From an uncultured archaeon (GTDB lineage Archaea > Iainarchaeota > Iainarchaeia > Iainarchaeales > VGJJ01), in contig CAYIIU010000001.1 in NCBI GenBank assembly GCA_964363635.1, forward strand, positions 5,112 through 69,111: a stretch of 64,000 nucleotides of DNA, given 5' to 3'. Below are positions 1,379 through 49,495 of the stretch, in pieces; the first letter of the stretch is position 1, and every line of letters begins with the position of its first letter. The notes beneath the pieces are model-generated. The model was given only the letters and a program-made list of their open reading frames with translations, was not told the DNA's origin and searched no databases. A program made the position numbers and the translations under genes.

Positions 1379-2239
1379 ATGGCATCATCAAAGTTAAGAC
1401 GGAAAGTACGCGGACCATTATTGGTTTGGAGGGCCTTTCAGCTTTTCTCTCAAAAAAAACCTTCACGAGCAGTTTATGAAGAATTAATTAAAGAGCACCC
1501 TGAACTGGGAATTCAGACTCCTGAAAAAATGGAACAATACATGAAAAGGCTCATTGGACTTACATCGGGACAAAAAATAGAACACATTTTTGCAGGAAAA
1601 AATTCAAGAGAAACTTGGGAACAATTCATTGTTTACTTGAATGCGCACAGTCGAAAAAGAGAAAAAATAGTTGCAGCGTTGAAGGGAAGACCGCTCGCGC
1701 GTGATCTGCGGGAAAAAATTGCGGCTGCCAATCGGACACCTGAAAAAAGAGCCATTGTTCGCGCGGCAAACACCGGACGAGAATTAACACCTATGGAAAG
1801 CGCCAACCGCTCGCGCGCACTCAAAAAAAGATGGGAACAAACCATTGCAAAAAACCCAGAGGCGGGAAAAGTGGCTGCTGCACATGCCAACCGAGCCCAA
1901 ATTCTTACCAGACGCCAACGATTGCGCCAAGCTATTAATGAAGGAACAATCCAAGAGGGAGAAACCACTTTTGGGACAAACACAAGAGAAGTGATTGCAG
2001 GAAAGGAGTTTTCTCCCGAAAGAGAAATGTCACGACGGGAAATTAGAAATCTGTTGAATGAAGAGGCAAGGAGATTAAGTGGGATCAAGCGACAAATAAT
2101 CCTAGAACATTTCTTTGAAGAGAAATCCCTTGAAACAATTGCAACCGAGACGGGAATAGGATTGGAACGTATTCAAAAACATTACCGAGAGGCCCTCCAG
2201 ATATTATCCCGGAAATGGAATGTCCGCGCGTTGGTTTGA
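1379..2239 (+). CDS. Basic protein with a C-terminal HTH resembling sigma-70 region 4
   Basis: The C-terminus reads LSGIKRQIILEHFFEEKSLETIATETGIGLERIQKHYREALQILSRK. This matches the region 4 pattern L..RER.VL..RF......TLEEIG..LG...ERVRQI...AL.KL. The N-terminus is K/R-rich. I chose the start at ATG 1379, which is in frame with ORF 1205, to avoid a 112-nt overlap with the upstream gene. Confidence 0.45.
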   Translation: MASSKLRRKVRGPLLVWRAFQLFSQKKPSRAVYEELIKEHPELGIQTPEKMEQYMKRLIGLTSGQKIEHIFAGKNSRETWEQFIVYLNAHSRKREKIVAALKGRPLARDLREKIAAANRTPEKRAIVRAANTGRELTPMESANRSRALKKRWEQTIAKNPEAGKVAAAHANRAQILTRRQRLRQAINEGTIQEGETTFGTNTREVIAGKEFSPEREMSRREIRNLLNEEARRLSGIKRQIILEHFFEEKSLETIATETGIGLERIQKHYREALQILSRKWNVRALV

Positions 2240-2334
2240 CCACTCCTACGCACCCGCTTTAAAAGGATTCTGAGGGCGTTTTGATACGTCAAAGGGGATT
2301 TGCTTTTTTGATCGAACTTTTTAAAAAAAAGTTC

Positions 2335-2406
2335 GGGCGCTTGGCGCAACGGTAGCGCGCTTCCATGGCATGGAAGAGGTTGGGGGTTCAAATCCCCCAG
2401 CGTCCA
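2335..2406 (+). tRNA. tRNA-Ala (anticodon GGC)
   Basis: The 7-bp acceptor stem GGGCGCT/AGCGTCC carries a G3:U70 wobble pair, the alanine identity element. The anticodon stem CTTCC/GGAAG flanks the loop ATGGCAT, and the T-arm is TGGGGGTTCAAATCCCCCA. CCA is not encoded. Confidence 0.85.
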
Positions 2407-2543
2407 TAACCGGAAACCTCCGGTGGTGCGGCAGCCTTTTAGAAAAAGGCTGGCGAAAATTTCGATGAACCCTTTTCCAAAGGGTTCAAGGACTAGGAGG
2501 GATTTTCAATCCCTCGGTAGGCCAATTAGTAGTAGAGGCAAAT

Positions 2544-2614
2544 GCGGATGTGGTGCAATGGTAACATCAGAGCCTTCCAAGTTCTGGACCTGGGTTCGAT
2601 TCCCAGCATCCGCA
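2544..2614 (+). tRNA. tRNA-Gly (anticodon TCC)
   Basis: The acceptor stem is GCGGATG/CATCCGC. The anticodon stem AGAGC/GTTCT flanks the loop CTTCCAA. The T-arm is CTGGG-TTCGATT-CCCAG. I could not fold the D-arm cleanly by eye. Confidence 0.75.
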
Positions 2615-2615
2615 T

Positions 2616-3506
2616 TTATTCTTTTTTTGAAGCCGAAATGCTTGAATAGTACGCGCCCCACAATCCACCATTGTCACCTAATTGCGTTGCAACGATTGGA
2701 GGAACAGGATGCAACGTAAATGGTTTGATTTCATCCGCACTCGGAATAATTTCGGAAAATTGAGATACGCCAATGCTTCCCATAATAATTATCTTATCCA
2801 CCGCAAAAACATTGAGCATCGTTCCAATTCCACGTGCATTCACCGCGCGTGATTTTGCAACAATGGATCTTGCTTTATCATCTCCTTTTTTCGCAAGAGC
2901 AAAAACTTCCTCGGGAGAAATAAGATGATTGAATACTTTTTCGGTTTGCATTTGAATTCCTTTTCCTGACGAAAATGAGAACCAACACCCTTTGTGATCC
3001 AAAACACATGCGGGCGCACCTGAATAAGTGTCTAAAATCATGTGTCCGAATTCACCCATCGTTCCTTCCACAAGAGTTTTATTCCATACTAACCCCGCGC
3101 CCATGCCCGTGCTAATGGCAAGGAGGTAGAATGAGTCCAATCCTTTTCCATATCCGAGGAAAAACTCCGCTTTAACAGCGAGCTTCAGATCGTTTTCGAT
3201 TTTAACGGGATTTGGAAACGCACGAATGAGCGACTCGAGGGAGATGGATGACAAAATTCCTAAGGGACCTGAATTGAGGAGAATATTTCCTTGAATCGGA
3301 CCGGGAAGGCCGATGACGGTGCACTCCACGCTTGTTTTTTTCGCAGCACCACGAATTTCAGTTGAAAGATTTTTGATTAACAAAACAAGAGATGGAAAAC
3401 CAGCTTGCGTGCTGGGGATTATTTTCTTCGCGAGAATCTTTTCATTCTCGATAATAGCGCCGCGGATGGATGTCCCACCGACGTCAAAACATTCGATGAG
3501 GGGCAT
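2616..3506 (-). CDS. ROK-family sugar kinase (glucokinase-like)
   Basis: The N-terminus has DVGGTSIRGAI, the actin-fold phosphate-1 motif. ISTGMGAGLV and GEFGHM are ROK signatures. Confidence 0.8.
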   Translation of the reverse strand: MPLIECFDVGGTSIRGAIIENEKILAKKIIPSTQAGFPSLVLLIKNLSTEIRGAAKKTSVECTVIGLPGPIQGNILLNSGPLGILSSISLESLIRAFPNPVKIENDLKLAVKAEFFLGYGKGLDSFYLLAISTGMGAGLVWNKTLVEGTMGEFGHMILDTYSGAPACVLDHKGCWFSFSSGKGIQMQTEKVFNHLISPEEVFALAKKGDDKARSIVAKSRAVNARGIGTMLNVFAVDKIIIMGSIGVSQFSEIIPSADEIKPFTLHPVPPIVATQLGDNGGLWGAYYSSISASKKE

Positions 3507-3783: not shown

Positions 3784-6027
3784 TCACACTTTCATCTCTT
3801 CCATTCCTTTTCCGGAAGGAGAACTTTTCTTTCCTCCGCCGAACAAGCGGGCGAAGAAACCGAAAATGGAACCAAAGAAACCTGAATGAGTTTTATTCTC
3901 GTCGAAATTGACAGGAAGACCGGCAAGGCGCGCGGCGAGCTTCTGAATTTCAATGGAAGACTTTGCCTGCGTATTGCGAAGCATTACGGGAACGGCTTTG
4001 TCGCGCTGAAACGAATGACGCATTTCATCATCGTAGGGCACCGTTGCATATACTGGGAGTTCCATCATGCGCGAAACTTCATCCTTGCCAATTTCACCTT
4101 TTTCAAAACGAACCATGTTGAGGACAATTCCCAAGGGTTTGTTTCCCAAACGCTGCGCGACGATTTTTGTTTTCAACACGTCTGCGATGGATGGAGAATC
4201 GGGCGTGGCGATGAGCAAGGATTCTTCCGTGGATGCAATCGTGGCGAGCACGGATTTTTCAATCCCTGCGGGACCGTCCAACAAAACAAAATCGAACTTA
4301 GGTTGAATGGTTTTGATGACCGTTGCCAATCTGTCGGCGTCGACGCGGCGATAATTTTCGAGTGATAATCCGGAAGGAATAAATTTCAGCCCATTGGGGC
4401 CATCGTAAATAGCATCATGGATTCCCGCTTCGCCGAGCAAAACATCGTGTAATGTGATTGGAGAGGATTGCATTCCCAACAAGAGTGAAAGATTCGCCAT
4501 CGCAATGTCCGCATCCACTAAACATACGGACACGCCGCGCTGCGCAAGGGCGATTCCTAAATTAGCACAAATGGATGTGTTGGAGAGAATGATTCCCGAT
4601 GCGTGCGTGAAATGGCCACCGTATTCAGAAACCTGGAAGTCGTAAACATATGGACGATTGTAATCAATTCGTTTCACATCGTCCACGCGTCGAAACTCCA
4701 CATTGTCTTGAAGCATTTGCTCCAACCACGAAATGAGTGGGTGCTGGACATTCATTTCTTTGTAAACATTCAAATAACGCTGCACCGTTTGTTTGGACAG
4801 CGCATAGTATTCCCATTCGTATTCATAGACCATTTGCTTGGTGCATCCCAGCTTCTTTTCAATTTGCAACGCAGTCAAATCGGATTCCTCTCGGATTTGT
4901 TTCAATAATTTTCCAACTGGATACACATCGATATTCGTATTCTCCTCTGCGGGACTCTGCAATTGATCAAATAAGCGGTTGGCCTTTTCCTGATGAGTAA
5001 AACCAATGTAATCGGAATATTTTTGTGCATTTTGTCCGGTAAGATATAAGCGCCAATAGGGCTGCTTCTCTGTCATTTTACCATTTGTTGCCATTTTGTA
5101 CGTTAGGGTTATTTGAGATGAGATGCCAAAACGGTTGCGCAATAATGACGCGACTTGGAACGCAAGCTTCTTTGATTTCGTATCATACTCGATCTCTCGG
5201 CGGTCAATATTCACTGTTCCATCGGTATCAAATAGACCCCGAATGAATGCAGCAATTGACGGATTGCTGGAGTTAAATAATGCAGTCGGAACTTCTTTAT
5301 CGCCGGCCAATGCCATTTTTACGCCGTACTTTTCGAATAGTTTGCGAATGGGCTCTTTTTTGTAAACGCTCATAACAAATGAATTACGATCCTTGTTCTG
5401 GAAAACCTCTCCAAAAACTTTTAAGTACGATTCACGAATGTTTCGAACCATGTCGGGCGGAGTGGCAACCACAGAAATGCCATTCTCTTTCATATTGCCA
5501 TCACCAATCACATATCCTAACCATTGAGCAACATACACAGGAACACTATCTTCGTTTTCGATATCGTGCGTGTTTTTGTACAAAAGCAAATAATCTTTTT
5601 TGGAAACGATTTCGTCCGCGCGAACTTTTTGCAACTTCCCCGAGCGCATGACGACAAATTGATGCTCTGGAGTGACGGAAACATCACCCGCTGCACAACA
5701 GATGGTAAACAATTCCTTAGGAGCGGGCTTGCGCATCAATGCAAAAGGTTTATTTTGAAAGTGGGTCACTTTCTGATTTTCTTCGGAAAACAAAAAAGAA
5801 TTAAGTTGGAATTCAGACGGAGAATCAATCACTTCAAAAAACTCTTCTGAACCGTCCGTCAGTTTGACAGCGACTTTCTTCACGGTTTGCGGACTTTTTT
5901 CGATTAAAGAGTCAATGAATGGACCGATTTGAATAACATCCCCATTTGACAAAGAAATGTATTCATCGTAGGATTGACTTTTCCCTACTCCACCCTTTCC
6001 TGAAACGATTGCTATACTTCGACCCAT
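3784..6027 (-). CDS. MinD/ParA-family ATPase whose deviant Walker A box is interrupted by an intein
   Basis: The N-extein is MGRSIAIVSGKGGVGK. The C-extein begins TSICANLGIALAQRGVSVCLVDADIAMANLSLLLG and continues with LLDGPAGIE, which is MinD-like. A 467-aa insert carrying a LAGLIDADG motif lies between them. Confidence 0.75.
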   Translation of the reverse strand: MGRSIAIVSGKGGVGKSQSYDEYISLSNGDVIQIGPFIDSLIEKSPQTVKKVAVKLTDGSEEFFEVIDSPSEFQLNSFLFSEENQKVTHFQNKPFALMRKPAPKELFTICCAAGDVSVTPEHQFVVMRSGKLQKVRADEIVSKKDYLLLYKNTHDIENEDSVPVYVAQWLGYVIGDGNMKENGISVVATPPDMVRNIRESYLKVFGEVFQNKDRNSFVMSVYKKEPIRKLFEKYGVKMALAGDKEVPTALFNSSNPSIAAFIRGLFDTDGTVNIDRREIEYDTKSKKLAFQVASLLRNRFGISSQITLTYKMATNGKMTEKQPYWRLYLTGQNAQKYSDYIGFTHQEKANRLFDQLQSPAEENTNIDVYPVGKLLKQIREESDLTALQIEKKLGCTKQMVYEYEWEYYALSKQTVQRYLNVYKEMNVQHPLISWLEQMLQDNVEFRRVDDVKRIDYNRPYVYDFQVSEYGGHFTHASGIILSNTSICANLGIALAQRGVSVCLVDADIAMANLSLLLGMQSSPITLHDVLLGEAGIHDAIYDGPNGLKFIPSGLSLENYRRVDADRLATVIKTIQPKFDFVLLDGPAGIEKSVLATIASTEESLLIATPDSPSIADVLKTKIVAQRLGNKPLGIVLNMVRFEKGEIGKDEVSRMMELPVYATVPYDDEMRHSFQRDKAVPVMLRNTQAKSSIEIQKLAARLAGLPVNFDENKTHSGFFGSIFGFFARLFGGGKKSSPSGKGMEEMKV
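4579..5979 (-). mobile_element. Intein with a LAGLIDADG homing-endonuclease domain, inside the MinD-like ATPase
   Basis: The insert begins with Ser straight after GKGGVGK and ends in Asn followed by Thr (ILSN|TS). A block reading FIRGLFDTDGTVN is present. Splicing would restore GKGGVGK-TS-ICANLG. Confidence 0.7.
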
Positions 6028-12164: not shown

Positions 12165-15100
12165 ATGGGTATGGAAAGAGAAAGTTTTGGATTCGAGGAA
12201 GCGAAAGGCTTCCACAAGCCGGAAGAGACGGAGATAGCGCAGACGCCCCTCAAGGGAGCCGCAAACCCCTTCATCCCCAAATTCGAAGAATTCTTTTCCA
12301 CTCAAGAGTATAAGAAAAAGATCGAGAAGCTCGCCCACGAATACCCGCAAAACAAATCGCTGATTGTGGACTACAACGATGTGGATTCGTTTGATTATCA
12401 ACTCGCCGAAGAATTGCTCGCCCATCCTGATTTGTTGATTGAAGCCGCGGAACTGGCCGTGCAAAAAATTGAAGTGCCAGTGCTGCAAATGGATAAATTT
12501 TCTCCCAATGTACGTTTTCGGGGATTGCCCAAAGACAAGTCCCCCCTCGTGCGGGACATTTCCGCGCAGCAATTGGGAAAACTATTCGCCGTGGAGGGAG
12601 TTATTAGACAAGTCACCGAAGTCATGCCTAAATTGAAAAGCGCCACATGGAGATGCAAGCGCTGCGGAAACCAATACATCTTGGAGCAGGACGGGCACCA
12701 ACAGCGCAAGCCCGCATTCTGCAATTGCAAACACCGCGACTTTGAATTGGTTCCCGAAGAAAGCACGTTCGTGGACTATCAAAAAATTCAGATTCAAGAA
12801 CCCTTAGAAATGCTCAAAGGAAGCGAGCAAGCCGTGAATTTGGATGTGTACATTGAAGACGACTTCGTGAATCGCGTGTATCCGGGAAACCGCACGCAGA
12901 TTACGGGGATTTTGAGACTGTATCCGCCCAACAAGGACAAAAAGAATGTCTATGGAAGATACTTGGAAGCCATTCATCTGGAAGAAACGGAAAAAGAATT
13001 CGAAGACGTTACCATCAACGAAGAGGATGAAGTGAAAATCAAAGAAATCGCCAAGAATCCTAAGATTTATGAGATACTCGTACAATCGATCGCCCCCACG
13101 ATTCATGGACACGAAATCGTGAAAGAATCCATTTCGCTTCAGCTTTTTGGAGGAGTAAAGAAGACACTCCCCGGGGATATGAAAATCCGCGGAAATATTC
13201 ACGTTTTGCTTGTGGGCGATCCTGGCACTGGTAAAAGTATCCTCCTGCAAGCGACGGACAAGATTGCGCCGAAGAGCGTGTATGTGAGTGGTAAAGGAAG
13301 CACGAGTGCAGGATTATGCGTTGCACCTGACTCACTTATTTTGAATGATAATGGTTTCAAATCGATTGAAGAGTTTGTTGAAACAAAATTCGACAATCAA
13401 TTGCAGCGGGAAGAATTGCCCGGAGCATTTAGCAATGAATTCATGGGACAGACGCACAGCCTCACTCCACAATTGGATTTCTCAGTTCAACCTGTTGAGA
13501 AAATCTGGAGAATTAAAGCTCCGCCAAAGATGATTCAATTCACTACTAAAACAGGAAGAGAATTGAGCCTTACACCCGCAACCTCGCTGATCCGACTCAA
13601 AAGTAGTAAAGCGGAATGGATTGAAGCAAATGAATTACAAGCAGGAGACTATGTGGCAGTACCTCGCTTTTTGCCTGAAGGACAACGAAAAAATATTCCA
13701 ACCTTCACCGTATTGCTGGATGACCCGTACATCAAAATTGGAAATCCATTAGCGGAATGGATGAAAGAAATAATCGCGAAGCTCGTTCCGAAATACGGAA
13801 GCAAACAGGCCATCGCCAAAAAAGTGGGAAAAAGCAGGGACACTATCTATGCGATCCAAAACCCTAAATTCCACCACGGATGGGAACTGCAGAAAGTAGT
13901 TGGATTAGCACGCGAAGCAGGATATTCCGATAATCAAATCGCCCAAAAGATAACAACCCTATTCATTCGACATGGCTTTACAAATCAAATCCCCACCTAC
14001 CTAGATGACCCTGATGTCACCTACCTCGTTGGAGCCATTATCGGGGATGGAAGCATGGAAGATGCAGAAGATTGCACGACCATTCGTCTCTGCGGGAACG
14101 ATCCGCAGATACTTGATCGATGCACCAAAATATTGCATGATAAATTTGGAATCATTCCTGAAAAGGAGAAGAATGCGGATAGGGAGAGAGTCCCCTCCTT
14201 ACGAATGAGTTCCCGTGTTTTAGGAAAAATTCTTCGCGCGTATGGAATGCGACATGAGAAAAAAGAAAACGCACTGTCTCACATGGCAACAGAGATGCCT
14301 AACCATATTCTTCGAAATTTACTCCAAGGATTATTTGATACAGACGGATACGCAGATGATTCTAAAACAGGTGGAAAAAATGTTGGAATAAGTTCTGTCA
14401 GTCCTGAACTAATTAAAACAATTCACCTCTCGCTACTCAAATTTGGGATTATTTCCAAAAAGAGATTCCGTAAGAGAGCAGGAAATGTCGCAATCGGAAA
14501 AAAAATCACGGTAATAAGCCGAAACGATCAATACTCCATCGAAATTTATGGGAAAAAGAATATGGAGCTTTTCAGAGAAAAAATAGGGTTTGGTCTCGCC
14601 CGAAAACAAGAGACTCTGGATAAAATAATCAACAGCATACATGAAGAAAGGACAAATATTGATTTTATTCCGGAGATTCAAGAGGCACTTCAAACAACAA
14701 ATGCCAAAAGCCAATACAAAAAAGGAAAAGTTCGGATTTCCCGAACAAAATTGAAGGAATTAATGAAGGATCTGGAAGATTGTTTCTTGCAAAAATTGGG
14801 AAACGCCAATGTCCTTTGGGACCAAATCAAAGTGAAGAAAGAGTTTTCGCCCGATTATGAATACGTCTATGATATGACCGTTAGCGGCAGCCATAACTTC
14901 ATTGCGAATGGGTTTTACGTCCATAACACGGCTTCCGCCGTGAAAGATGATTTTGGTGAAGGCGGATGGACGCTCAAAGCCGGTGCGCTCGTGCTTGCGT
15001 CCGGCGGAATGGTTATGGTAGATGAATTTGATAAGATGGAATGCTTGATGGGAGACACGCTCGTCTGCTCCGAAAACGGAGAACTGAAACCCATTCAAAC

Positions 15101-17699
15101 CATTTTTGAAGAAGTCAAAAAAGAAGGAAGAATCGAAAAGACAAAAAAAGGAACAAGTGTGCGCGGCATCCAAAATAGATTCGTTCTTTCAATGGACAAA
15201 AACTTGAAAATGGTCAAACGAAAAGTGTTGGCCGCACATGAGTATTCCCATGATGGAAGAATTTTGGAAATCCGACTTCAGAGCGGAGAAAAAATAAAAG
15301 CCACTCCTAATCACCCTTTTTTTACTTCTACCGAAAAAGAAGTCAAGACTATTAAAGCAGGATTCTTGAAAAAAGGAGACTTTGTGCTAGTCCCTGCGCG
15401 CGTCCCTAATGAGGATGGGGGGAAATCAAATGAGAAACTTTCCCGCATGTATGGATATTTAGCGGGGGACGGAAACGTTACTTACAACCCGCCTGAAAAC
15501 TACTTGGTCCGATTTACGAATAAGGATGCAGACCTCTTGGATGATTTCAGCATATGCTGCGAAAACACGTTTGGTAAACCCACCATTTACCCGAGCGAGA
15601 TAAGGGCGGGAGGATTAATGTGTACGCGCATCAATGGACAAGCGCACATTGACTTCATTGCTGAACACGCTCCCGGACTCATGGAGAAATTTGAGCGCAA
15701 ATACACTCCGACAAGCATCTTTCATTCCTCTCGAAACACGTCCAATTACCTGCGAGGACTCTTTGACTCGGAGGGAAGCGTGGACATGAGACACCAGCAG
15801 ATCAGCTTTGCGTCAACGAGTGAAAGATTGACCTTGGAAGTTAAAGCACTACTATTGAAATACGGCATTCTCTCCCAAATACAGCACAAGAAACCAAAGG
15901 GGAATAAAATGACGGCATACGTGCTTCGAATCACCGACGCCGATTCGCTCCATTCATTTTTAAAAAAAATTGGATTCACCAGCCGACGAAAATACAAAAA
16001 ACTCGAAACATTCATTCAACCTACTAAAGAAAGGAGCGTCATCAATGTAATCCCAAATATTGGGGGGCTTCTCAAAGAAATTCGCATACCATTGGGTTTG
16101 CATCAAAAGCAATGCGGGATAAATAAAACGACCTACAACAATTTTGAAAAGGGGGCCGCCAACATAAGCATAAAAAATGCCCAGAAAGTATTGACGGCAT
16201 TCAAAAAAACAGCGGCGCAAAAGAACGTTTCAGATGAAACAAAAGAGAGAATGAAGTATTTCGAAGCCCTCGCTATGGGAGACGTCCGCTGGAGAAAAGT
16301 CGATGAAATAAAAGAAGCCAGCATTTCTTTGGATACTCACCTAAGCTATCAGCGTACCCACCAGATAAATCAAATTTTAAAAAAAACTGGAATGAAAAAA
16401 GTCTCCCATCAAAAAATGATAGAGAGAATTCCAATACTTATTCAAGAAATAGAAAAGGCCAACGAAACTATTCAAGAATATGTTGACAAAGAAAAGCATT
16501 CGTGGAGTGAAATAAAGGAAGTCATCAGAAAAAACACAATTAGCCACTCTGAAATAGCCAAAGAAGTGGGAGTGAACCAAGCCACTTTTACTAGGTGGGC
16601 GAATCAAAATACAAAACCGCCGCTGAATGCATTGCAGCAGACGGCCCAAGCGGTAAAAAAAAGATTAATTAGAAGAAAACAAACAACTGAAAGTCTGGTA
16701 CAGCTATTAAGTGAGACAATCGCTAAACCAACCGCCAAAATATATGATTTGACTATCGAAGGAAGCCACAATTTCATCGCCAACAATATTATCGTACACA
16801 ACTCCGAAGACCGGTCAGCGATGCATGAGGCGATGGAACAAGGACAAGTGAGTGTAGCGAAAGCCGGAATGGTCACGCGATTCAAAACGGACACTTCAGT
16901 ATTAGCCGCGGCCAATCCAAAACTTTCGCGCTTTGACACGTTCAAACCATTTTTCGAACAAATTGACTTGCCCCCCTCTCTCATTTCGCGATTTGATTTA
17001 TTTTTCATGATTCGCGACACGCTCAACAAGGAACGAGATGAAATGATTGCCGCGCACATCTTGTCCTCGCATAAAGTGGGGGAGCAGATGCTGCAGATGC
17101 AGCGCGCGGGAAAGAAGGGGTACACGGATGAAATGCTGAAAATGGAAGAGAAAGTCACGCCCATTATTGACATCGAATTGTTGCGAAAATACATATCCTA
17201 CTCGCGACAGCGCGTGTTTCCCATTTTGAGTTTAGAGGCCACCCAACTGATTCAAGACTTTTACGTTGGTTTACGTGATCAGGGAAGACAGCAGGGGAGC
17301 TATGCAGCAACGGCGAGACAATTGGAAGGACTCGTACGATTGGCGGAAGCCTCTGCACGCGTACGTTTGAGTGACGAAGTGACGCAAGAAGATGCGGAAC
17401 GTGCCATGCGACTCGTGCGCGCTTCGTTAGAGGATGTGGTGAAAGACCCCGAGACGGGAAGAATTGACATCGATATTGTTACCAGCGGACAAACACAAAG
17501 TTCGCGCGACCATATGCGCACCATCACGGACATCATCAAGGCGAAAAGCAAGGAAATGGACAAAGTCCCCATTCAAGATGTCGTTGCGGAAGCGTTGTCG
17601 AGAGGAATCGAAGAAGAGAAAGTGCGCGATTTGATTACCAAACTCAAGAAAGCGGGAGATATTTACGAACCCTCGCACGGTTTCCTCAAATCGGCGTGA
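12165..17699 (+). CDS. mcm: MCM replicative helicase interrupted by two inteins
   Basis: Extein motifs include a Zn finger CKRCG...CNCKH, the Walker A box GDPGTGKSILLQ and the Walker B box MVMVDEFDKM. They also include the sensor SEDRSAMHEAMEQGQVSVAKAG and the arginine finger VLAAANP. The extein totals about 720 aa. Confidence 0.9.
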   Translation: MGMERESFGFEEAKGFHKPEETEIAQTPLKGAANPFIPKFEEFFSTQEYKKKIEKLAHEYPQNKSLIVDYNDVDSFDYQLAEELLAHPDLLIEAAELAVQKIEVPVLQMDKFSPNVRFRGLPKDKSPLVRDISAQQLGKLFAVEGVIRQVTEVMPKLKSATWRCKRCGNQYILEQDGHQQRKPAFCNCKHRDFELVPEESTFVDYQKIQIQEPLEMLKGSEQAVNLDVYIEDDFVNRVYPGNRTQITGILRLYPPNKDKKNVYGRYLEAIHLEETEKEFEDVTINEEDEVKIKEIAKNPKIYEILVQSIAPTIHGHEIVKESISLQLFGGVKKTLPGDMKIRGNIHVLLVGDPGTGKSILLQATDKIAPKSVYVSGKGSTSAGLCVAPDSLILNDNGFKSIEEFVETKFDNQLQREELPGAFSNEFMGQTHSLTPQLDFSVQPVEKIWRIKAPPKMIQFTTKTGRELSLTPATSLIRLKSSKAEWIEANELQAGDYVAVPRFLPEGQRKNIPTFTVLLDDPYIKIGNPLAEWMKEIIAKLVPKYGSKQAIAKKVGKSRDTIYAIQNPKFHHGWELQKVVGLAREAGYSDNQIAQKITTLFIRHGFTNQIPTYLDDPDVTYLVGAIIGDGSMEDAEDCTTIRLCGNDPQILDRCTKILHDKFGIIPEKEKNADRERVPSLRMSSRVLGKILRAYGMRHEKKENALSHMATEMPNHILRNLLQGLFDTDGYADDSKTGGKNVGISSVSPELIKTIHLSLLKFGIISKKRFRKRAGNVAIGKKITVISRNDQYSIEIYGKKNMELFREKIGFGLARKQETLDKIINSIHEERTNIDFIPEIQEALQTTNAKSQYKKGKVRISRTKLKELMKDLEDCFLQKLGNANVLWDQIKVKKEFSPDYEYVYDMTVSGSHNFIANGFYVHNTASAVKDDFGEGGWTLKAGALVLASGGMVMVDEFDKMECLMGDTLVCSENGELKPIQTIFEEVKKEGRIEKTKKGTSVRGIQNRFVLSMDKNLKMVKRKVLAAHEYSHDGRILEIRLQSGEKIKATPNHPFFTSTEKEVKTIKAGFLKKGDFVLVPARVPNEDGGKSNEKLSRMYGYLAGDGNVTYNPPENYLVRFTNKDADLLDDFSICCENTFGKPTIYPSEIRAGGLMCTRINGQAHIDFIAEHAPGLMEKFERKYTPTSIFHSSRNTSNYLRGLFDSEGSVDMRHQQISFASTSERLTLEVKALLLKYGILSQIQHKKPKGNKMTAYVLRITDADSLHSFLKKIGFTSRRKYKKLETFIQPTKERSVINVIPNIGGLLKEIRIPLGLHQKQCGINKTTYNNFEKGAANISIKNAQKVLTAFKKTAAQKNVSDETKERMKYFEALAMGDVRWRKVDEIKEASISLDTHLSYQRTHQINQILKKTGMKKVSHQKMIERIPILIQEIEKANETIQEYVDKEKHSWSEIKEVIRKNTISHSEIAKEVGVNQATFTRWANQNTKPPLNALQQTAQAVKKRLIRRKQTTESLVQLLSETIAKPTAKIYDLTIEGSHNFIANNIIVHNSEDRSAMHEAMEQGQVSVAKAGMVTRFKTDTSVLAAANPKLSRFDTFKPFFEQIDLPPSLISRFDLFFMIRDTLNKERDEMIAAHILSSHKVGEQMLQMQRAGKKGYTDEMLKMEEKVTPIIDIELLRKYISYSRQRVFPILSLEATQLIQDFYVGLRDQGRQQGSYAATARQLEGLVRLAEASARVRLSDEVTQEDAERAMRLVRASLEDVVKDPETGRIDIDIVTSGQTQSSRDHMRTITDIIKAKSKEMDKVPIQDVVAEALSRGIEEEKVRDLITKLKKAGDIYEPSHGFLKSA
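13317..14927 (+). mobile_element. MCM intein 1, 537 aa, with a LAGLIDADG endonuclease
   Basis: The insert starts at Cys after GKGSTSAGL and ends YVHN before TASAVKDD. It contains LVGAIIGDGSMED and LQGLFDTDGYADD. Confidence 0.85.
15042..16802 (+). mobile_element. MCM intein 2, 587 aa, with a LAGLIDADG endonuclease
   Basis: The insert starts CLMGDTLV after DEFDKME and ends IIVHN before SEDRSAMHEAMEQ. It contains YLAGDGNV and LRGLFDSEGSVD. Confidence 0.85.
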
Positions 17700-19900: not shown

Positions 19901-20026
19901 GAGGGGTTGCAAAACCCCTCTCCGTCCACCGGCACGACCGCAGCCTTTTGAAATGGCCTTTTCAAAAAAGGCCGGCGAAAACTTTTGCTCGAGCTTTTTG
20001 AAAAAGCTCGAAAGGCTGGCGAAAAC
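19901..20026 (+). promoter_or_regulatory. Cluster of three short GC-clamped hairpins with repeated GGCGAAAAY motifs, upstream of aIF-2β
   Basis: gaggggttgcaaaacccctc is at 19901-19920. ggccttttcaaaaaaggcc is at 19955-19973 and is followed by ggcgaaaac. gagctttttgaaaaagctc is at 19991-20009 and is followed by gaaaggctggcgaaaac. Confidence 0.4.
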
Positions 20027-20105
20027 CCGACGCGCGGGGGCGGAACCCCGCATCGGAAGCGGTCCGAAACTGGCCTTTTATAAGGGTTTTTCCGTGTTTT
20101 CATGT

Positions 20106-21197: not shown

Positions 21198-21419
21198 ATG
21201 GTTAAAAATATGAAAAAACAAGTAAAGAGCATGAACGATGCCGATTCTATTCAAGTACTACAGCAGAGAATGGATCATTTAGAAATGAGAATGAAAGCGC
21301 TTTCGGTAAAAGAAGTTAAACCAACAAAGCAAGATTTACACGACATTCGCCAAGCCCGCAAAGATATTGCTGCTGGAAAAGTAATTCCTTGGTCTAAAGT
21401 GAAAGAACGCCACGGGTGA
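21198..21419 (+). CDS. Putative antitoxin, addiction-module component of the TIGR02574-like type
   Basis: The small helical protein ends AAGKVIPWSKVKER. That C-terminal motif, (G)xIPWEEVK, is characteristic of that antidote family. It sits immediately upstream of a RelE-family toxin. Confidence 0.55.
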   Translation: MVKNMKKQVKSMNDADSIQVLQQRMDHLEMRMKALSVKEVKPTKQDLHDIRQARKDIAAGKVIPWSKVKERHG

Positions 21420-25189: not shown

Positions 25190-26292
25190 TGGCTGGACTC
25201 TCAACGAAAGATAAGGAAGTCATCAAGAAACTCGAAGTATTGGGAAACCAGCTCGTTTCGCAGATTAACAAGGGAGATAATCCGTCGATGGAACTGCCAG
25301 TCCGTTCACTTGGAAACATTTTCTTCGACCAAAAGTCACGAACCATCAAATTAGGAGACAAAACATCCGAACGACAATTCCTGAACATTGCCCACACGCG
25401 AAAATTCATGCAAACCACGCTTGTGGCGAATGAAATCAAAAAAGTCATTCAGCAGAATGCCACAGTATCCATTCGTGATCTCTATTACGCACTCAAACAT
25501 ACCATTGAAGGGACGCAGGAGAATACTTTCGAAGACCAGTCCGAAAGTGATCCTCTTGTGGAAGACGTAGAAGCCTCGCTCAATTTGCTCCGCGAAGAAT
25601 TGCATCTTGCAGCATCGGCGAAAGGAATCATCGCCGGAGACATGGTGGTGCAGGATGGAAAGGACATCATTGATTTAGCCAAAATGGGTTCAGGCGGATG
25701 GTCCGTCCCCTCGAATGTGGAAGAGGACCGAATTGAAATAAAGAAAATGAAAGCCGACTATGTGCTTTTCATCGAAAAGGACGCTGTGTGGCGACGCTTC
25801 AATGAAGATAAGTTCTGGGAGAAAAATAATTGTATCATTATTACTGGTCGTGGACAAGCGGCGCGCGGAGAACGACGATTCGTTCAGCGTTTGAGCCGCG
25901 AACATAAATTGCCCGTGTACGCACTCATGGATGCGGACCCGTGGGGAATGTACATTTACTCGGTGATCAAACAAGGATCCATTTCACTTTCGTATTCGGA
26001 AGAAAAACTCGCCACTCCCGATACGAAATACATCGGTTTGACGGTTGGAGATGTGGACAAGTTCAAAATCCCCAAAGAAGTGACGATTAAACTCAACACG
26101 CTTGATTTGAAACGCTTAGATGAACTCAAATCATACGAGTGGTTCAAGCACAAGAAATGGCAGCAAGAGTTCGACTTGATGAAAGAGAAAAACATCAAGA
26201 TGGAATTGGAAGCCCTTTCCAAAAAAGGAATCCGCTTCATCACGGAGGAATACTTGCCACGAAAGATTAAGGACGAAGACTTCCTTCCATGA
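25189..26292 (+). CDS. top6A: DNA topoisomerase VI subunit A (Spo11 homolog)
   Basis: IRDLYY contains the catalytic Tyr region. ALMDADPWG is the Toprim DxD motif. The size is 367 aa. Confidence 0.9.
   Translation: MAGLSTKDKEVIKKLEVLGNQLVSQINKGDNPSMELPVRSLGNIFFDQKSRTIKLGDKTSERQFLNIAHTRKFMQTTLVANEIKKVIQQNATVSIRDLYYALKHTIEGTQENTFEDQSESDPLVEDVEASLNLLREELHLAASAKGIIAGDMVVQDGKDIIDLAKMGSGGWSVPSNVEEDRIEIKKMKADYVLFIEKDAVWRRFNEDKFWEKNNCIIITGRGQAARGERRFVQRLSREHKLPVYALMDADPWGMYIYSVIKQGSISLSYSEEKLATPDTKYIGLTVGDVDKFKIPKEVTIKLNTLDLKRLDELKSYEWFKHKKWQQEFDLMKEKNIKMELEALSKKGIRFITEEYLPRKIKDEDFLP
26212..26292 (+). repeat. Direct repeat copy 1, the authentic 3' end of top6A
   Basis: It encodes ALSKKGIRFITEEYLPRKIKDEDFLP*. 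Confidence 0.7.
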
Positions 26293-27274: not shown

Positions 27275-27322
27275 TCCGGTTAAACCAGCGAAAACCTTTA
27301 GGAAATTTTTGGGAAGACGATG

Positions 27323-27402
27323 CCCTATCCAAGAAGGAAATCCGCTTCATCGCGGAAAAATACTTGCCACGAAAGATTAAGGACGAAGACTTCCTACCTT
27401 GA
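27323..27402 (+). repeat. Direct repeat copy 2, a diverged duplicate of the top6A 3' end, about 90% identical
   Basis: It encodes ALSKKEIRFIAEKYLPRKIKDEDFLP* in frame. A 37-nt stretch, aatacttgccacgaaagattaaggacgaagacttcct, is identical to copy 1. Confidence 0.7.
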
Positions 27403-32009: not shown

Positions 32010-32183
32010 GCTCGTAAAACAACGCCTTGCATTAAAACCCTTGCCCAGATTATCCATATGGTCGCTCGGTGGATTTTGGGGAATGTAAAATTCCCCAAGA
32101 AGCCACATGATTGAATGTTGTAGGGGTACCGCCCCGCGGTACCCGTACGCATTTTGATCAAACTTTTGCGATAGCAAAAGTTT

Positions 32184-32254
32184 GCGGGGGTGGCAGAGAG
32201 GTTATGCGCCGGCCTGCAGAGCCGGATAGCCGAGTTCGATTCTCGGTCCCCGCT
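32184..32254 (+). tRNA. tRNA-Cys (anticodon GCA)
   Basis: The acceptor stem is GCGGGGG/TCCCCGC. The anticodon stem CCGGC/GCCGG flanks the loop CTGCAGA. The T-arm is CCGAG-TTCGATT-CTCGG. Confidence 0.85.
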
Positions 32255-32345
32255 TACGATTAGTAAACCGTACGCGCCAATCATCGGGTTAATCGGCGAT
32301 GCCCCGAGCACACCTTTTTATTGAATCAATACAGTAATAGATAGT

Positions 32346-32534
32346 ATGAGCGACACTGCTGTACTAAAAGCCATCCAAACCAGGCTTGAGACCATGGATA
32401 CTAAACTAAATGCCTTACTCGTGAAAGAGGAAGCTCCAACCAAAGAAGAACTACGCGCGATGAAACGCGGACATAAAGAAATCGCCGAAGGAAAAGTAAT
32501 TCCTTGGGAAACGGTAAAAGCTCGAAACCAATAA
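32346..32534 (+). CDS. Putative antitoxin, paralog of 21198-21419
   Basis: It ends AEGKVIPWETVKARNQ and lies immediately upstream of a RelE toxin. Confidence 0.55.
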   Translation: MSDTAVLKAIQTRLETMDTKLNALLVKEEAPTKEELRAMKRGHKEIAEGKVIPWETVKARNQ

Positions 32535-32546
32535 AGGCCCTCTATC

Positions 32547-32819
32547 ATGTCTGTCTATACTGTCGAATTGACGCGCGTAGCAGACAAACAATACACCAAA
32601 CTCGAACCCAAAATGAAAGAACGTATCAAAGAAGCCATTGACGCTCTCCGTGAAAACCCCGCACCAGTGAACCAATTCGATGTTACCAAAATAACTGGAA
32701 GCCAATCCGACTATCGTATCAGAATAGGAGACTATCGAATCCAATACACCGTAAACTGGAAAGAAAAATACGTCAAAGTGTACGACATTGACCGAAAGAA
32801 AGATCGAAGCTACAAATAA
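32547..32819 (+). CDS. RelE/StbE-family toxin, paralog of 21426-21698
   Basis: SDYRIRIGDYRIQYTVNWKEKYVKVYDIDRKKDR matches the RelE pattern. Confidence 0.7.
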   Translation: MSVYTVELTRVADKQYTKLEPKMKERIKEAIDALRENPAPVNQFDVTKITGSQSDYRIRIGDYRIQYTVNWKEKYVKVYDIDRKKDRSYK

Positions 32820-32929
32820 GCAATTTTTTCACCAAAAAGTATAGACCTATAATACCACGTTGACCCTAAGGAAATGGGCAATCAGGGTGTTGAATTACCA
32901 TGGACAGAGACCCGATCCGTTGTCCGGAC

Positions 32930-32945
32930 TCTCGGTCCCCGCTTA
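32930..32945 (+). repeat. 16-nt exact repeat of the tRNA-Cys 3' end (tctcggtccccgctta), an att-like site
   Basis: It is identical to 32241-32256 inside and just after tRNA-Cys. Confidence 0.55.
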
Positions 32946-33060
32946 TACTTTGGCGTTGAAGCGCTGTGGGAATAGTAGAAAAACGCGCTTTAACTGGGAT
33001 GCGAATCTTGGCTTGTCAATGTACCAAAAAAGATTTATTGAGGGATAGTAGACAATAAGC

Positions 33061-33405
33061 ATGTCATTAAAGAATCACAAACAGATATTTGCAGGAGCAC
33101 TAATTATAGTTTTTCTATTTTTTGCTTTTATTGTAAGTGGCTTTTTGGTAATTATAGAAGACAATTACGAAACTCCATGTGATGAACTTCCAACCACACA
33201 TGAATCCCAACAAATTTTATCAGCACACACCCAGGAACAAAATCAGGTAAACGCTATTTCCTTCGGAATGAGTATTGATACCTCTCGATGTCCTGGGAAA
33301 GCCGAAATTGTTATCAATTATCAAACTTTATCTGATCGACAAAAAATAAAAGACCTAATTGGAAACACTTTTTTTGGCATTCCCTATCGAATGAGCAACA
33401 ATTAA
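33061..33405 (+). CDS. Hypothetical small membrane-anchored protein
   Basis: The N-terminal TM helix is FAGALIIVFLFFAFIVSGFLVII. Confidence 0.4.
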   Translation: MSLKNHKQIFAGALIIVFLFFAFIVSGFLVIIEDNYETPCDELPTTHESQQILSAHTQEQNQVNAISFGMSIDTSRCPGKAEIVINYQTLSDRQKIKDLIGNTFFGIPYRMSNN

Positions 33406-33539
33406 ACAGGCAACAGCAAATTACCACGTTTCCAATTCGTTCAGAAACTCACCCTTACTCATTTTGATAAACTTTCCTTCATCATGTCTTTTCCAGGCTT
33501 TTTCAACGCGCTTAGAAAATATTGCATTATTCATAACAA

Positions 33540-33797
33540 TCAAATCCGCTTGTAAATAGTACTACGATGACCCACTACGCGCACCCAAATAATATCCGGG
33601 TTTCTTTCCACATCAACAATGGCGCGATAATCTCCAACCCGAATTTTGTGCCCATATTCTTTATCGTTAATGGATTCGATTCCGCGACCAGTTTGGGCCA
33701 CTTCACCCAATTTTCGAACAATCCGGGCCGCCACATCCTTTGGAAGCTTTTCTAACTGCTTCTCCGCTTTAGGGTCGTAACGGACCTCATAGGTCAT
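33540..33797 (-). CDS. RelE/ParE-family toxin
   Basis: HKIRVGDYRAIVDVERNPDIIWVRVVGHRSTIY is the ParE/RelE core. Confidence 0.65.
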   Translation of the reverse strand: MTYEVRYDPKAEKQLEKLPKDVAARIVRKLGEVAQTGRGIESINDKEYGHKIRVGDYRAIVDVERNPDIIWVRVVGHRSTIYKRI

Positions 33798-33988
33798 CGA
33801 AACTTCTTTTCCATTTCCTTTTGAGACTTAAACTCAATGTGAGCCCGTTTGCGGGATTCTTTTACTTGTGCTTTCGTTTCGTCATTTAATTCAAATTGGG
33901 ACTCTTCAAAGAGTTCTCTGAACTCATGCAAGTCCCTTTGGATTGCATCCACTTTAGTATTGATTTGTTTCAACTCAGTTTCAGTCAT
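33794..33988 (-). CDS. Putative antitoxin partner of the ParE/RelE toxin
   Basis: The 64-aa helical ORF overlaps the toxin start by 4 nt. Confidence 0.45.
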   Translation of the reverse strand: MTETELKQINTKVDAIQRDLHEFRELFEESQFELNDETKAQVKESRKRAHIEFKSQKEMEKKFR

Positions 33989-34123
33989 ATTAAATTAGGC
34001 GTCAAAAGACTATATAAAAATACCCACGCCAAATCGCCAAAAAAGCTTAAATCAGTTTATGTATCCAATCAGAGTCCAGAAAGTAGCACTTTAACACGCA
34101 GTATAGGAACGGCCTCCGCTTAT

Positions 34124-34333
34124 TTATTCCTTTATTCCGAGAGACACTAAACGTCGGCTGAAACGCGTGGAGAACTTTTTCGAGTGGCGGGATTTTTCAA
34201 CGATTTTATCAAAAACGGCTTCTCTTCGTTCATCGGATTCTCTCCGGTCTCGCTTGATTTCCCGCACGATTTCCCCCATTGAAACGGGGCTATTTTTGTC
34301 GGAATATTTATCAAATGGAAATTTCTTTTTCAT
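34124..34333 (-). CDS. Hypothetical small basic protein
   Basis: It overlaps the PIN gene end by 4 nt. No motif is recognised. Confidence 0.25.
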   Translation of the reverse strand: MKKKFPFDKYSDKNSPVSMGEIVREIKRDRRESDERREAVFDKIVEKSRHSKKFSTRFSRRLVSLGIKE

Positions 34334-36867: not shown

Positions 36868-36985
36868 ACCACCCATCACGCTAAAGGGCGTTAAAAGCGC
36901 TCCTATAGGAAATACCAAGGGAACGCAGGGCGTCGATTTTTAAATGATTCTCAGGGGTTTTTGAGTATCTAGAACACGAAAAGGA

Positions 36986-37023
36986 CGTTGGTTTTTCGCC
37001 AACGTTTTTTGCGAAGCAAAAAA
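36986..37023 (+). promoter_or_regulatory. Two adjacent T-run/A-run palindromes in the L10e 5' region
   Basis: They are cgttggtttttcgccaacg and ttttttgcgaagcaaaaaa. The first contains the reverse complement of GGCGAAAAAC. Confidence 0.35.
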
Positions 37024-41141: not shown

Positions 41142-41564
41142 ATGACGATTCGACTCGCAACCCTCGCCGATTTGGAAATTATTCTTCCCATCATGCGGAA
41201 ATTGGATGATGAAAACAACCATTATTCGGACGAGAAAGCGATAAAGGACATTACCAACAAACACATGTATGTTTCCGTGCATGACAAAAAAATCGTGGGA
41301 ACGATGGTCGTGGACATCTACATCGGCACGTGCGAGATTGTGCGCATCGTCTCCAACCAAAAAGGCTGCGGACGAGAAATGGTCGAATACGTGATTGAAA
41401 AATGCAAAAAGGAAAAAATTCCCAAGGTATGGTGCTGGAGTTCCGCTTGGCACGGCGCAGAAGGGTTTTACAAGAAAATGGGTTTTGAAGAACAATATCT
41501 GCTCCGCAAGCAGTGGCACGGGAAGGATTGCTGGATATTCGGGAAAGTCATCCCACTCATATAG
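41142..41564 (+). CDS. GNAT-family N-acetyltransferase
   Basis: The 140-aa protein has a QKGCGREMVEY acetyl-CoA binding loop. Confidence 0.6.
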   Translation: MTIRLATLADLEIILPIMRKLDDENNHYSDEKAIKDITNKHMYVSVHDKKIVGTMVVDIYIGTCEIVRIVSNQKGCGREMVEYVIEKCKKEKIPKVWCWSSAWHGAEGFYKKMGFEEQYLLRKQWHGKDCWIFGKVIPLI

Positions 41565-41586
41565 AAATCAAAATTGAAATGGGCTA

Positions 41587-41838
41587 ATGAATTTACGTCC
41601 ACCAAAAATTCAACATAGTTTTTTATTCGCAAGCGAAGATATAGAAGAACCTATGAACCGGTTTCAAGAGTTTATTGCGTTGGTGGTATCGGTATTTGGA
41701 ATATCGACCAGCCAGTCTACCCTGCTCATTTTCTCCAACATCACCGTTGGAATGGTAGGAACAATTCTCTTTTTCGCCGGTGTCATTGGGATGATTTTTG
41801 ATGACATTAAAGAGTTCTTTGACTTTACGGCATACTAA
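41587..41838 (+). CDS. Hypothetical small membrane protein
   Basis: Two predicted TM helices are present. Confidence 0.3.
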   Translation: MNLRPPKIQHSFLFASEDIEEPMNRFQEFIALVVSVFGISTSQSTLLIFSNITVGMVGTILFFAGVIGMIFDDIKEFFDFTAY

Positions 41839-49475: not shown

Positions 49476-49495
49476 TCAAAAAAATAATCAAAACC

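Follow-up and report, generated by a model that had tools for sequence, protein, structure and literature searches.

What are the short palindromic hairpins that lie around the tRNA genes in a 64,000 nt stretch of genomic DNA (hereafter the window) from an uncultured archaeon of the Iainarchaeota? A sequence-only reading of this DNA had described four of them, here called H1 to H4, each pairing a T-run with an A-run around the genes for tRNA-Ala and tRNA-Gly. It had proposed that they could be archaeal terminators or attenuators, signals for RNase P or another processing step, or binding sites of a palindrome-recognising regulator. We confirmed and extended the observation, and the interpretation is partly supported. 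In our reading, to which we give a probability of about 0.5, the elements are intergenic punctuation palindromes with an oligo-T terminator on both strands, and the copies abutting a tRNA probably also supply the A/T box of its promoter. An RNase P signal, a regulator site and chance all seem less likely than this punctuation reading.

All four hairpins are present (Table 1). H1 had been described as a perfect 10-bp stem whose final base is G1 of tRNA-Ala, and both the letters and the gene borders given by ARAGORN and Rfam bear this out. The other three do lie between tRNA-Ala and tRNA-Gly, but H3 and H4 are longer than first described, reaching over 2466-2488 and 2497-2515. The recurrence reported upstream of aIF-2beta and of L10e is real, and so is the copy between convergent genes, which has an 11-bp stem and occupies 49450-49474 instead of 49453-49475. 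The hairpins form a family as had been suggested, but a heterogeneous one, in which some members (before tRNA-Gly and HAD) seem to hold a promoter A/T box at their centre and one is a GC hairpin followed by T14 (44175-44198). Arms, T-run length and loop vary among the window copies, so these are not recent copies of one another, and the related subtype described below has three to four copies in the 64 kb.

We counted perfect hairpins with loops of up to 7 nt and used 40 dinucleotide shuffles as a control. Stems of at least 9 bp were found 13 times, against 2.6 ± 1.6 (maximum 7) in the shuffles, and stems of at least 10 bp six times against 0.7; perfect hairpins are altogether about 5 to 9 times commoner than in shuffled sequence. 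Every T-run/A-run hairpin whose stem reaches 7 bp or more falls between genes (7 of 7), and intergenic DNA makes up 5,192 of the 64,000 nt (8.1 %). Such an excess of intergenic over coding copies was what the earlier idea depended on, and as it is found within the window, the observation stands. Folded as RNA, the single hairpins reach -5.5 to -13.1 kcal/mol with z-scores between -2.0 and -6.3.

Two of the three window tRNAs (Ala and Cys) have a stem of at least 10 bp that ends exactly on position +1. The tRNA-Cys gene, missed in the sequence-only reading, is preceded by three hairpins, the last of which (32159-32184) is the most stable, at -13.1 kcal/mol (z -6.3), compared with -7.7 kcal/mol (z -3.4) for H1. 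The subtype that abuts tRNAs can be written as T4-6 GAT, then Y-RAAC-T4-5, a loop and A4-5-GTTY-R, and both abutting copies have TTTTGATC-RAACTTTT...AAAAGTTY-G. Their T-run-GAT falls at about -32 to -23 (-31 to -23 for Ala, -32 to -26 for Cys) and the A/T-rich 3' arm at -10 to -1; the closing purine is +1 and is preceded by T (junction T|G). The form TTTTGATY-RAACTTTT...AAAAGTTY is common to these two copies and to the minus strand of 49450-49484, with a weaker copy at 19983.

A scan of one genome per prokaryotic species with the pattern TTGATYRAACTTTT-N0-12-AAAAGTTY gave at least 118 loci, copy numbers per genome being lower bounds; L-numbers below are labels of loci from other genomes or contigs. 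At least 59 matching loci are archaeal and come from many phyla. Those listed include Methanosarcinales, Methanocellales, Methanomicrobiales, ANME-1, Halobacteria, Methanobrevibacter, Thermococcus, Hydrothermarchaeota and Altiarchaeota, as well as Micr-, Woese-, Pace-, Nano-, Iain- and Aenigmarchaeota. The closing pair, before RAAC and after GTTY, is not forced by the pattern; among the matches listed, on which the counts in this paragraph are based, it was C-G in 38, T-A in 25 and unpaired in 7 of 70 distinct archaeal elements. The loop was 3 nt in 59 of the 70. Further hairpins in the matching archaeal loci have other arms that are nevertheless complementary (CAAGCC, TAACC, TAAGC, GAAAC, CGAT) and share one build, T4-5 plus 3-4 nt on one side. 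As the arms differ but stay complementary, the constant feature is the architecture, with pairing under selection. The polarity was T-run/A-run in 120 hairpins versus A-run/T-run in 16. In the direction from TTGAT to the hairpin, the far-side neighbour was the 3' end of a convergent gene 44 times and a gene start 15 times; since convergent 3' ends dominate, the usual order is gene stop, hairpin, RATCAAAA. In at least 7 cases TAA, the stop codon, belongs to the stem, often as its opening bases, as at 49450.

The same motif keeps close to tRNA borders in other archaea. It ends on +1 not only in the two window tRNAs but also in the tRNA-Ser of an Iainarchaeum (L058) and in L046, and it lies 2-4 nt 3' of tRNA ends in L069, L075 (Thermococcus), L102 and L010. 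In L010, L017, L022 and L063 it begins 0-3 nt past the 5' splice site of canonical tRNA introns recognised by ARAGORN and Rfam, and in L005 and L053 it opens introns predicted by ARAGORN only. The side with the longer T-run (T5) is always away from the tRNA body or on the antisense strand of the tRNA. In a metagenome-assembled genome (MAG) of Woesearchaeota the motif ends on the A of ATG, or 1 nt earlier, at open reading frames (ORFs) of 481 and 186 aa (L016, L068). An ORF directly after the motif was rejected as a general rule, as it holds for few loci. We also rejected the tail CRAAAA as a B recognition element of the next gene, because no TATA follows it at a fixed distance. At L010 636-790 the motif comes 3 nt behind a tRNA-Leu, and beyond it the 3' end of this tRNA is partly repeated (...tttgaatcctccactctgca), which resembles an att-like duplication. 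Full-text literature searches for the motif letters, as DNA or RNA, returned a single unrelated match, and keyword searching found no description.

Close relatives allowed us to follow single elements. The window is syntenic with the aRF1 relatives L232 (87 % at the amino acid level) and L233 (81 %), and with the ROK relatives L250 and L251 (72-75 %). The orthologous tRNA-Cys of L233 has no hairpins, and its spacer to the HAD gene measures 45 nt versus 145 nt in the window. Between tRNA-Ala and tRNA-Gly the window has 136 nt, whereas L250 has 75 nt and L251 68 nt; H2 and H3 are additional elements of the window that both relatives lack, and the 49450 element is missing in L232. The elements thus turn over quickly, given that close relatives lack several of the window copies. 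The hairpin before tRNA-Gly is kept in the window, L250 and L251 around a constant TTTTCAA, and its stems (GAGGGA/TCCCTC, GTGGGT/ACCCAC and GAGGGG/CCCTTC, respectively) show two compensatory positions. Before the tRNA-Ala of L250 the stem has decayed, yet ATTTTGAG is still present at -30, as is AGCAAAAGTTT|G from -11 to +1. The tRNA-Ala of L251 has an unrelated upstream module, common to the tRNA-Pro of another relative; this module, TTAGCGTCAACCGATAATGCG, was seen at L251 1696-1730 and L254 6885-6920, and its end lies 2-6 nt short of +1. Another module, of 74 nt (GC hairpin, GTACGCA, TTTTGATC, A/T hairpin) precedes the window tRNA-Cys and, with 89 % identity, a different tRNA in L046. Judging from these arrangements, tRNA upstream modules seem to be interchangeable in the lineage. 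Among 15 tRNAs of the lineage, nearly all have an A/T-rich box at about -36 to -23; for the window tRNA-Cys, the tRNA-Ser of L058 and the tRNA of L046, the 50 nt upstream of +1 contain no A/T box besides this one.

In archaea, transcripts are terminated at U-tracts of about 4-7 (PMC8716108), and published archaeal terminators need no hairpin (PMC8716108, PMC7237163). With a T-run on each strand, RNA polymerase arriving from either side of an element would meet an oligo-T stop, and the palindromes would act as two-way terminators or insulators between tightly packed transcription units. Like archaeal oligo-T terminators, the elements place runs of T4-8 just after stop codons or tRNA 3' ends, on both strands and often in series. 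Runs of at least 4-5 T on the non-template strand, soon after the 3' end of a gene or tRNA, are found in H2, in 49450-49474 and in the T6 plus T5 before tRNA-Ala. The latter lie 65-83 nt 3' of the stop codon at 2239, and H1 itself carries T5 on the plus and T8 on the minus strand. H2 carries T4-T5 26-45 nt 3' of tRNA-Ala and, with its tail GCGAAAA, has the usual orientation of an element behind a gene or tRNA. At 49450 the stop codon TAA of the plus-strand ORF is part of the stem, and T6 and T8 overlap the stop; the minus strand of 49450-49484 reads T7-GAT-hairpin 11 nt past the PAC2 stop codon. The TTTTT|GATC of the elements resembles the AGATC motif found downstream of termination sites in Haloferax (PMC7237163). 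In the coding DNA of the window, runs of five or more T occur 116 times on the sense and 291 times on the antisense strand, so that they are 2.5-fold rarer in sense.

Among the interpretations first offered, terminator or attenuator fits best, with the intergenic location, the T-runs on both strands and the excess of gene 3' ends (44 versus 15) in its favour, but a terminator of the bacterial type does not fit, because the hairpin contains the T-run or comes after it, instead of being followed by it. What the elements share with bacterial rho-independent terminators is a stem-loop with a T-run at gene ends, usable both ways; the T-run is, however, the inner 5' arm or precedes the stem instead of forming a tail, and the exact bacterial form occurs only at 44175-44198 with its T14. 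That site is, by its form, a classic hairpin-plus-T-run terminator, and it is conserved in L232, where a compensatory change has turned an A-T pair into G-C. Its conservation is an indication from sequence that the lineage does use hairpin-linked T-runs. A bacterial terminator scan of 1800-3000 returned 0 sites, and a sigma-70 promoter scan returned nothing relevant. The elements differ from archaeal oligo-T terminators in having a hairpin with selected pairing (3-nt loop, covarying stem), which contains the T-run or follows it at a distance of 3-4 nt.

The promoter part of the punctuation reading concerns copies that lie 25-35 bp before a start site, where the A/T-rich part would also provide the following promoter with its A/T (TATA-like) box. 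For the abutting copies we favour it because a terminator alone would leave no room for a promoter. TATA boxes of window protein genes begin at about -28 to -31 relative to the ATG, which indicates leaderless mRNAs, and the T-run-GAT lies where these boxes and the A/T boxes of lineage tRNAs lie. The T6-GAT at 2304-2312 fits this position, and we propose it as both an oligo-T stop for the upstream gene and the A/T box of tRNA-Ala. The centres of the tRNA-Gly and HAD hairpins are at expected A/T-box positions as well: TTTTCAA in H4 is probably the box of tRNA-Gly, and 32076-32098 probably holds that of the divergent HAD gene. On this scheme the element would itself drive transcription of tRNA-Ala and tRNA-Cys, leaderless or nearly so, and upstream read-through and downstream antisense transcription would both be halted at the tRNA border. 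A long transcribed leader is made less likely by the T6 and T5 before tRNA-Ala. We also count in favour of the promoter role the L250 copy, which retains just these parts in spite of its decayed stem, the lack of another A/T box before the window tRNA-Cys, the L058 tRNA-Ser and the L046 tRNA, the Woesearchaeota copies at ATG, and the T6 before L10e. Leaderless tRNAs are made in N. equitans from promoters 26-27 nt upstream (PMC10100707). The window resembles it in having an A/T-rich box about 26-30 nt from +1 (Ala and Cys), a purine at +1 and a DPANN host with a compact genome; it differs in that the box is T-run-GAT rather than a canonical TATA and that a hairpin fills the spacer. The N. equitans type also goes with a genome that lacks RNase P and with mature tRNAs that carry a 5'-triphosphate.

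Several points weigh against this reading. All its functional steps, namely termination at the T-runs, use of T-run-GAT by the TATA-binding protein and a transcription start at +1, are inferred. The copies at 2432, 2466, 2497 and 32159 have only T4, the low end of published terminator U-tracts, and since published Term-seq finds no need for a hairpin, T-runs alone leave the selection on pairing unexplained. The hairpin itself could contribute as a downstream DNA roadblock, by protecting RNA 3' ends, or could be a by-product of how the element originated. TTTTGATC has little likeness to the TTTAAA/TATAAA boxes of this genome, and a T-run-GAT-hairpin promoter in the majority orientation would fire antisense into gene 3' ends. 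Orthologous tRNA-Cys (L233) and tRNA-Ala (L251) do without the element, which is therefore dispensable. At -77 of tRNA-Ala, the window (gcTTTAAAAgg), L250 and L251 all have a box that looks canonical; it would be an alternative promoter giving a predicted leader of about 45 nt that contains the hairpin. Part of the spread across phyla may, moreover, be convergence of AT-rich palindromes picked out by the search pattern.

This last point is sharpened by matches beyond the archaea. The bacterial ones are multi-copy repeat families in Oscillospirales, Aminicenantes and Cloacimonadota with the core AAAAGTTTTGATCAAACTTTTTCAAAAGTTTG, 2-nt loops and adjoining GC hairpins. Their units span about 100 nt around AAAAGTTTTGATCAAACTTTTTCAAAAGTTTG and the GC hairpins and match no Rfam family; we saw them in Aminicenantes CSMAG_1899 (L018, L019, L023, L036, L056, L070, L073, L084, L086, L093) and in Oscillospirales (L020, L080, L081 and many further loci). 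A CRISPR leader, suggested by the type I-C-like GTCGC..GCAG..GCGAC, was rejected for the bacterial copies, as L080, the one locus checked, has no CRISPR array. In IMG/VR the scan gave 142 matches in 112 AT-rich stretches, many of them in giant-virus bins, and one matching contig encodes a capsid protein of nucleocytoplasmic large DNA viruses. The viral copies show no covariation of the closing pair (T-A 56, T-T 50), and 0 of 142 have a tRNA at a distance of up to 60 nt. Tandem arrays of TTTTGATTAAACTTTTTCTAAAAGTTT are present on giant-virus contigs (L145 3871-4039, L199 7770-7857, L183 2896-4229, and L132, L139, L178 and L206), and one giant-virus bin repeats the half-motif TTTTTGATTAAACTTT without a hairpin, pointing to a signal of the promoter or terminator type in these viruses. 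The elements resemble the 3'-end signals that obey the 'hairpin rule' of Mimiviridae (PMC4402537), which are AT-rich palindromes placed where genes end and used both ways; unlike these, whose ends are processed by viral RNase III and polyadenylation, the archaeal copies covary at the closing pair and lie near tRNAs, features that the viral matches lack. As similar motifs occur in giant viruses and bacteria, any claim of deep homology has to be tempered.

The strongest rival concerns origin and is compatible with the punctuation reading: the elements could be miniature palindromes like repetitive extragenic palindromic (REP) sequences or miniature inverted-repeat transposable elements (MITEs), selfish or semi-domesticated, which land in tolerated sites and affect termination or promoters only secondarily. 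We consider this possible, though we would not bet on it. Presence and absence at three orthologous sites (the HAD-Cys spacer, H2/H3 and 49450) speak for it, as do the 74-nt module found before two different tRNAs in two organisms, the tandem arrays in giant-virus contigs and in Methanosarcina L088 (5 copies with an 83-nt period), and the multi-copy families with the same core in Oscillospirales and Aminicenantes. A conserved short motif next to a hairpin also resembles REP sequences and the ends of IS200/IS605 elements. With REP sequences and bacterial interspersed mosaic elements our palindromes share short intergenic hairpins with a conserved flanking motif, many copies, some arrays, and gain and loss between relatives; REP sequences, mosaic elements and other miniature palindromes of bacteria often act as terminators or insulators. 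They are unlike them in having no known cognate transposase, in occurring in many phyla rather than in one species, and in their tight link to tRNA borders and introns. No transposase was identified, a genome-wide transposase search not having been made, and at the indels we saw no target-site duplication or terminal repeats, the flanks being too diverged to judge. Window copies that differ in arms, T-run length and loop do not favour mobility, and arms that vary freely while the architecture is kept look like selection on form. Neither the orientation bias (44 versus 15) nor nucleotide-exact placement at +1 is expected under neutral insertion. In ISDra2, an IS200/IS605 element, the hairpin is about 16 nt from the cut site. 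A left end of this type with TTGAT as target was rejected, because here the hairpin adjoins TTGAT and what follows on the right is the tRNA, not the interior of an element. A rolling-circle origin (PMC13107129) was likewise rejected, as it shares no feature with the elements, and a C/D-box small RNA in the Ala-Gly spacer was rejected for want of C or D boxes.

A hairpin within a transcribed 5' leader, acting on the RNA in pre-tRNA maturation as a signal for RNase P or another 5' enzyme, is unlikely. It would account for stems that end exactly at the mature 5' end in four tRNAs, for the conserved box at -77 of tRNA-Ala, and for the presence of the motif in other parts that are removed from pre-tRNAs (introns and trailers); the tRNA-Ala of L022 has the expected form, since its canonical TATA is at about -60 and the would-be leader contains a T5-GA-hairpin that stops 2 nt short of G1. 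The sense-strand T6 and T5 before tRNA-Ala speak against it, as archaeal RNA polymerase would stop there, and when leader and tRNA are folded together, G1 is predicted to pair within the hairpin, so that the acceptor stem is disrupted. Copies that end on the ATG of protein genes (L016, L068) cannot be explained by RNase P, and orthologous tRNAs lack the hairpin. Leader copies are the mirror image in orientation of intron and trailer copies, which points to a logic at the DNA level and not to one shared RNA signal. Nor does the junction have bulge-helix-bulge geometry: two 3-nt bulges around a 4-bp helix were rejected at the leader-tRNA border, where the stem runs unbulged into G1, and in other archaea the motif is an intron-internal helix only, 0-3 nt past the 5' splice site. 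The claim of a processing signal is thus not supported. The regulator site fares slightly worse. RAACTTTT-N-AAAAGTTY could be the operator of a dimeric regulator, placed between A/T box and start and repressing tRNA and ribosomal-protein genes; the half-site is common to three window sites and many archaeal loci, and archaeal repressors typically bind at -22 to +1. Most copies, however, are found at the 3' ends of genes, inside tRNA introns or as members of arrays, and giant viruses and bacteria have the motif too. The stems show covariation and no single fixed sequence: substitutions in the arms come as compensatory pairs (GAAC/GTTC, C-G/T-A; arms elsewhere are CAAGCC, TAACC, CGAT), and, among the matches listed, the closing pair is complementary in 63 of 70 elements, which disfavours a fixed half-site with uncompensated changes. 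To chance we give hardly any weight. Any T-run beside an A-run can pair with it, and A/T-rich sequence is usual in promoters and terminators, but the count of 13 stems of at least 9 bp against 2.6 expected, the perfect pairing of GC-containing outer arms, the exact +1 endings at two of three window tRNAs, and the compensatory changes in orthologous hairpins and at the closing pair of the 70 elements contradict it; shuffles and covariation together exclude functionless palindromes.

As punctuation palindromes the elements would fall near archaeal T-tract terminators and REP-like palindromes, and their link to tRNA 5' ends, 3' ends and introns is unexpected. Published maps present archaeal termination as a bare U-tract, to which a selected, gene-oriented hairpin T-tract that is spread over many archaeal phyla would add a structured class of signal. 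The copies ending on tRNA +1 point to leaderless tRNA transcription outside Nanoarchaeum, which, if true, bears on the dispensability of RNase P in DPANN archaea. No RNase P RNA was found by Rfam in the window or in about 100 kb from relatives, a small part of one genome. Occurrence at tRNA introns and 3' ends of distant archaea offers a concrete sequence for studying exchange among leaders, trailers and introns. A bolder proposal, which we regard as doubtful, is that T-run-GAT-hairpin is a portable terminator-promoter cassette whose last base is the transcription start. It would make tRNAs and some leaderless mRNAs of Iainarchaeota and other DPANN archaea start at +1, so that RNase P would not be needed for their 5' ends, and would have colonised tRNA trailers and intron 5' ends across Euryarchaeota and DPANN. 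One small mobile hairpin would then link promoter, terminator and intron evolution at tRNA genes. Should the elements be merely fast-evolving terminators, the finding is ordinary and still useful for annotating gene boundaries in such genomes.

Table 1. Hairpins, T-runs and tRNA genes of the window, with positions counted from its first letter; 'both' marks features to which no single strand is assigned
Feature	Position	Strand	Remark
TATA-like box gcTTTAAAAgg	2256-2266	+	70-77 nt upstream of tRNA-Ala; read from sequence
T6-GAT	2304-2312	+	-31 to -23 of tRNA-Ala
H1, cgaacT5-aaa-A5gttcg (cgaactttttaaaaaaaagttcg)	2313-2335	both	10-bp stem, 3-nt loop; last base is G1
tRNA-Ala(GGC)	2335-2406	+	ARAGORN and Rfam agree
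GC hairpin ccgga-aacc-tccgg (ccggaaacctccgg)	2410-2423	both	just 3' of tRNA-Ala
H2 (2432-2452, 9 bp) with tail GCGAAAA	2432-2459	both	specific to window lineage
TTTCGA with H3 (2466-2488, tgaaccc..gggttca, 10 bp)	2460-2488	both	head-to-head with H2; window lineage only
H4, gaggga-TTTTCAA-tccctc (gagggatt..aatccctc, 8 bp)	2497-2515	both	29-47 nt before G1 of tRNA-Gly
tRNA-Gly(UCC)	2544-2614	+	ARAGORN and Rfam agree
T7 run	2622-2628	+	8 nt 3' of tRNA-Gly
Three hairpins (19901-19920, 19955-19973, 19989-20011) with GGCGAAAA tails	19901-20011	both	upstream of aIF-2beta
Hairpin ttggggaat-gtaaa-attccccaa	32076-32098	both	centre about 29 nt upstream of likely HAD ATG (32058, minus strand)
GC hairpin gggtaccg-ccc-cggtaccc	32124-32144	both	within a module of about 70 nt common to L046
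TTTTGAT (-32 to -26) with hairpin caaacTTTTgc-gata-gcAAAAgtttg (32159-32184)	32152-32184	both	11-bp stem; last base is G1 of tRNA-Cys
tRNA-Cys(GCA)	32184-32254	+	ARAGORN and Rfam agree
Two adjoining hairpins (36985-37005, 37005-37023)	36985-37023	both	upstream of L10e (ATG 37033)
GC hairpin (44175-44198) then T14 (44157-44170)	44157-44198	-	15 nt after stop of 1017-aa gene
Hairpin taaacT6-g-A8gttta (49450-49474) with tail ATCAAAAAAA	49450-49484	both	11-bp stem, between convergent genes
Hairpin gggTTTTgg-t-ccAAAAccc	53398-53416	both	between divergent primase and P-type ATPase; ends 27 nt before ATPase ATG

Relatives keep a hairpin at the position of 2410-2423 with a different sequence, and the T7 run behind tRNA-Gly is likely the terminator of the tRNA unit, by analogy with published archaeal U-tract terminators (PMC8716108). 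The cluster before aIF-2beta sits between a stop codon at 19893 and the TATA box of that gene (20077-20084). Before L10e, a hairpin has the T6 of TTTTTTGCGAAGCAAAAAA, at about -28 to -23, as its 5' arm. A mini-hairpin core of high stability, GCGAAGC, forms the centre or the neighbour of palindromes at 37005-37023 and in L016, L043, L046, L069 and L094. In the window and 59 further loci, Rfam 15 at gathering score recognised only tRNAs and, in a bacterial locus, one S-adenosylmethionine (SAM) riboswitch.

The genes of the window are archaeal by their Pfam domains (aIF-2beta, PAC2, a presenilin-type peptidase, LSM, MCM, primase, Topo VI B, aRF1, TruD and L10e), and its nearest relatives are Diapherotrites/Iainarchaeota MAGs. 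A contig from Hainich groundwater (0.1 um fraction) encodes one protein identical to a window protein. The ORF at 1205-2239, directly 5' of tRNA-Ala, has a Sigma-70 region 4 domain with an E-value of about 1e-5, just above the Pfam cutoff, which is unusual in an archaeon. On the 3' side of tRNA-Cys, the region 32260-34300 has small ORFs and lower GC (0.42), has no counterpart in L233 and is possibly an integrated or variable island; an antitoxin-like ORF within it is repeated at 21360-21405. Inteins were seen in two genes, the MCM gene (12165-17699) with two that have LAGLIDADG domains, and a ParA/MinD-type ATPase gene (3784-6027) with one that has LAGLIDADG and helix-turn-helix domains. A 91-nt direct repeat with 86 % identity joins the 3' end of one gene (26202-26292) to a site 1.1 kb downstream (27312-27402). 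Finally, three small ORFs at 41142-42055 separate aRF1 from TruD; they are missing in L232, where the gap between the two genes is 32 nt.

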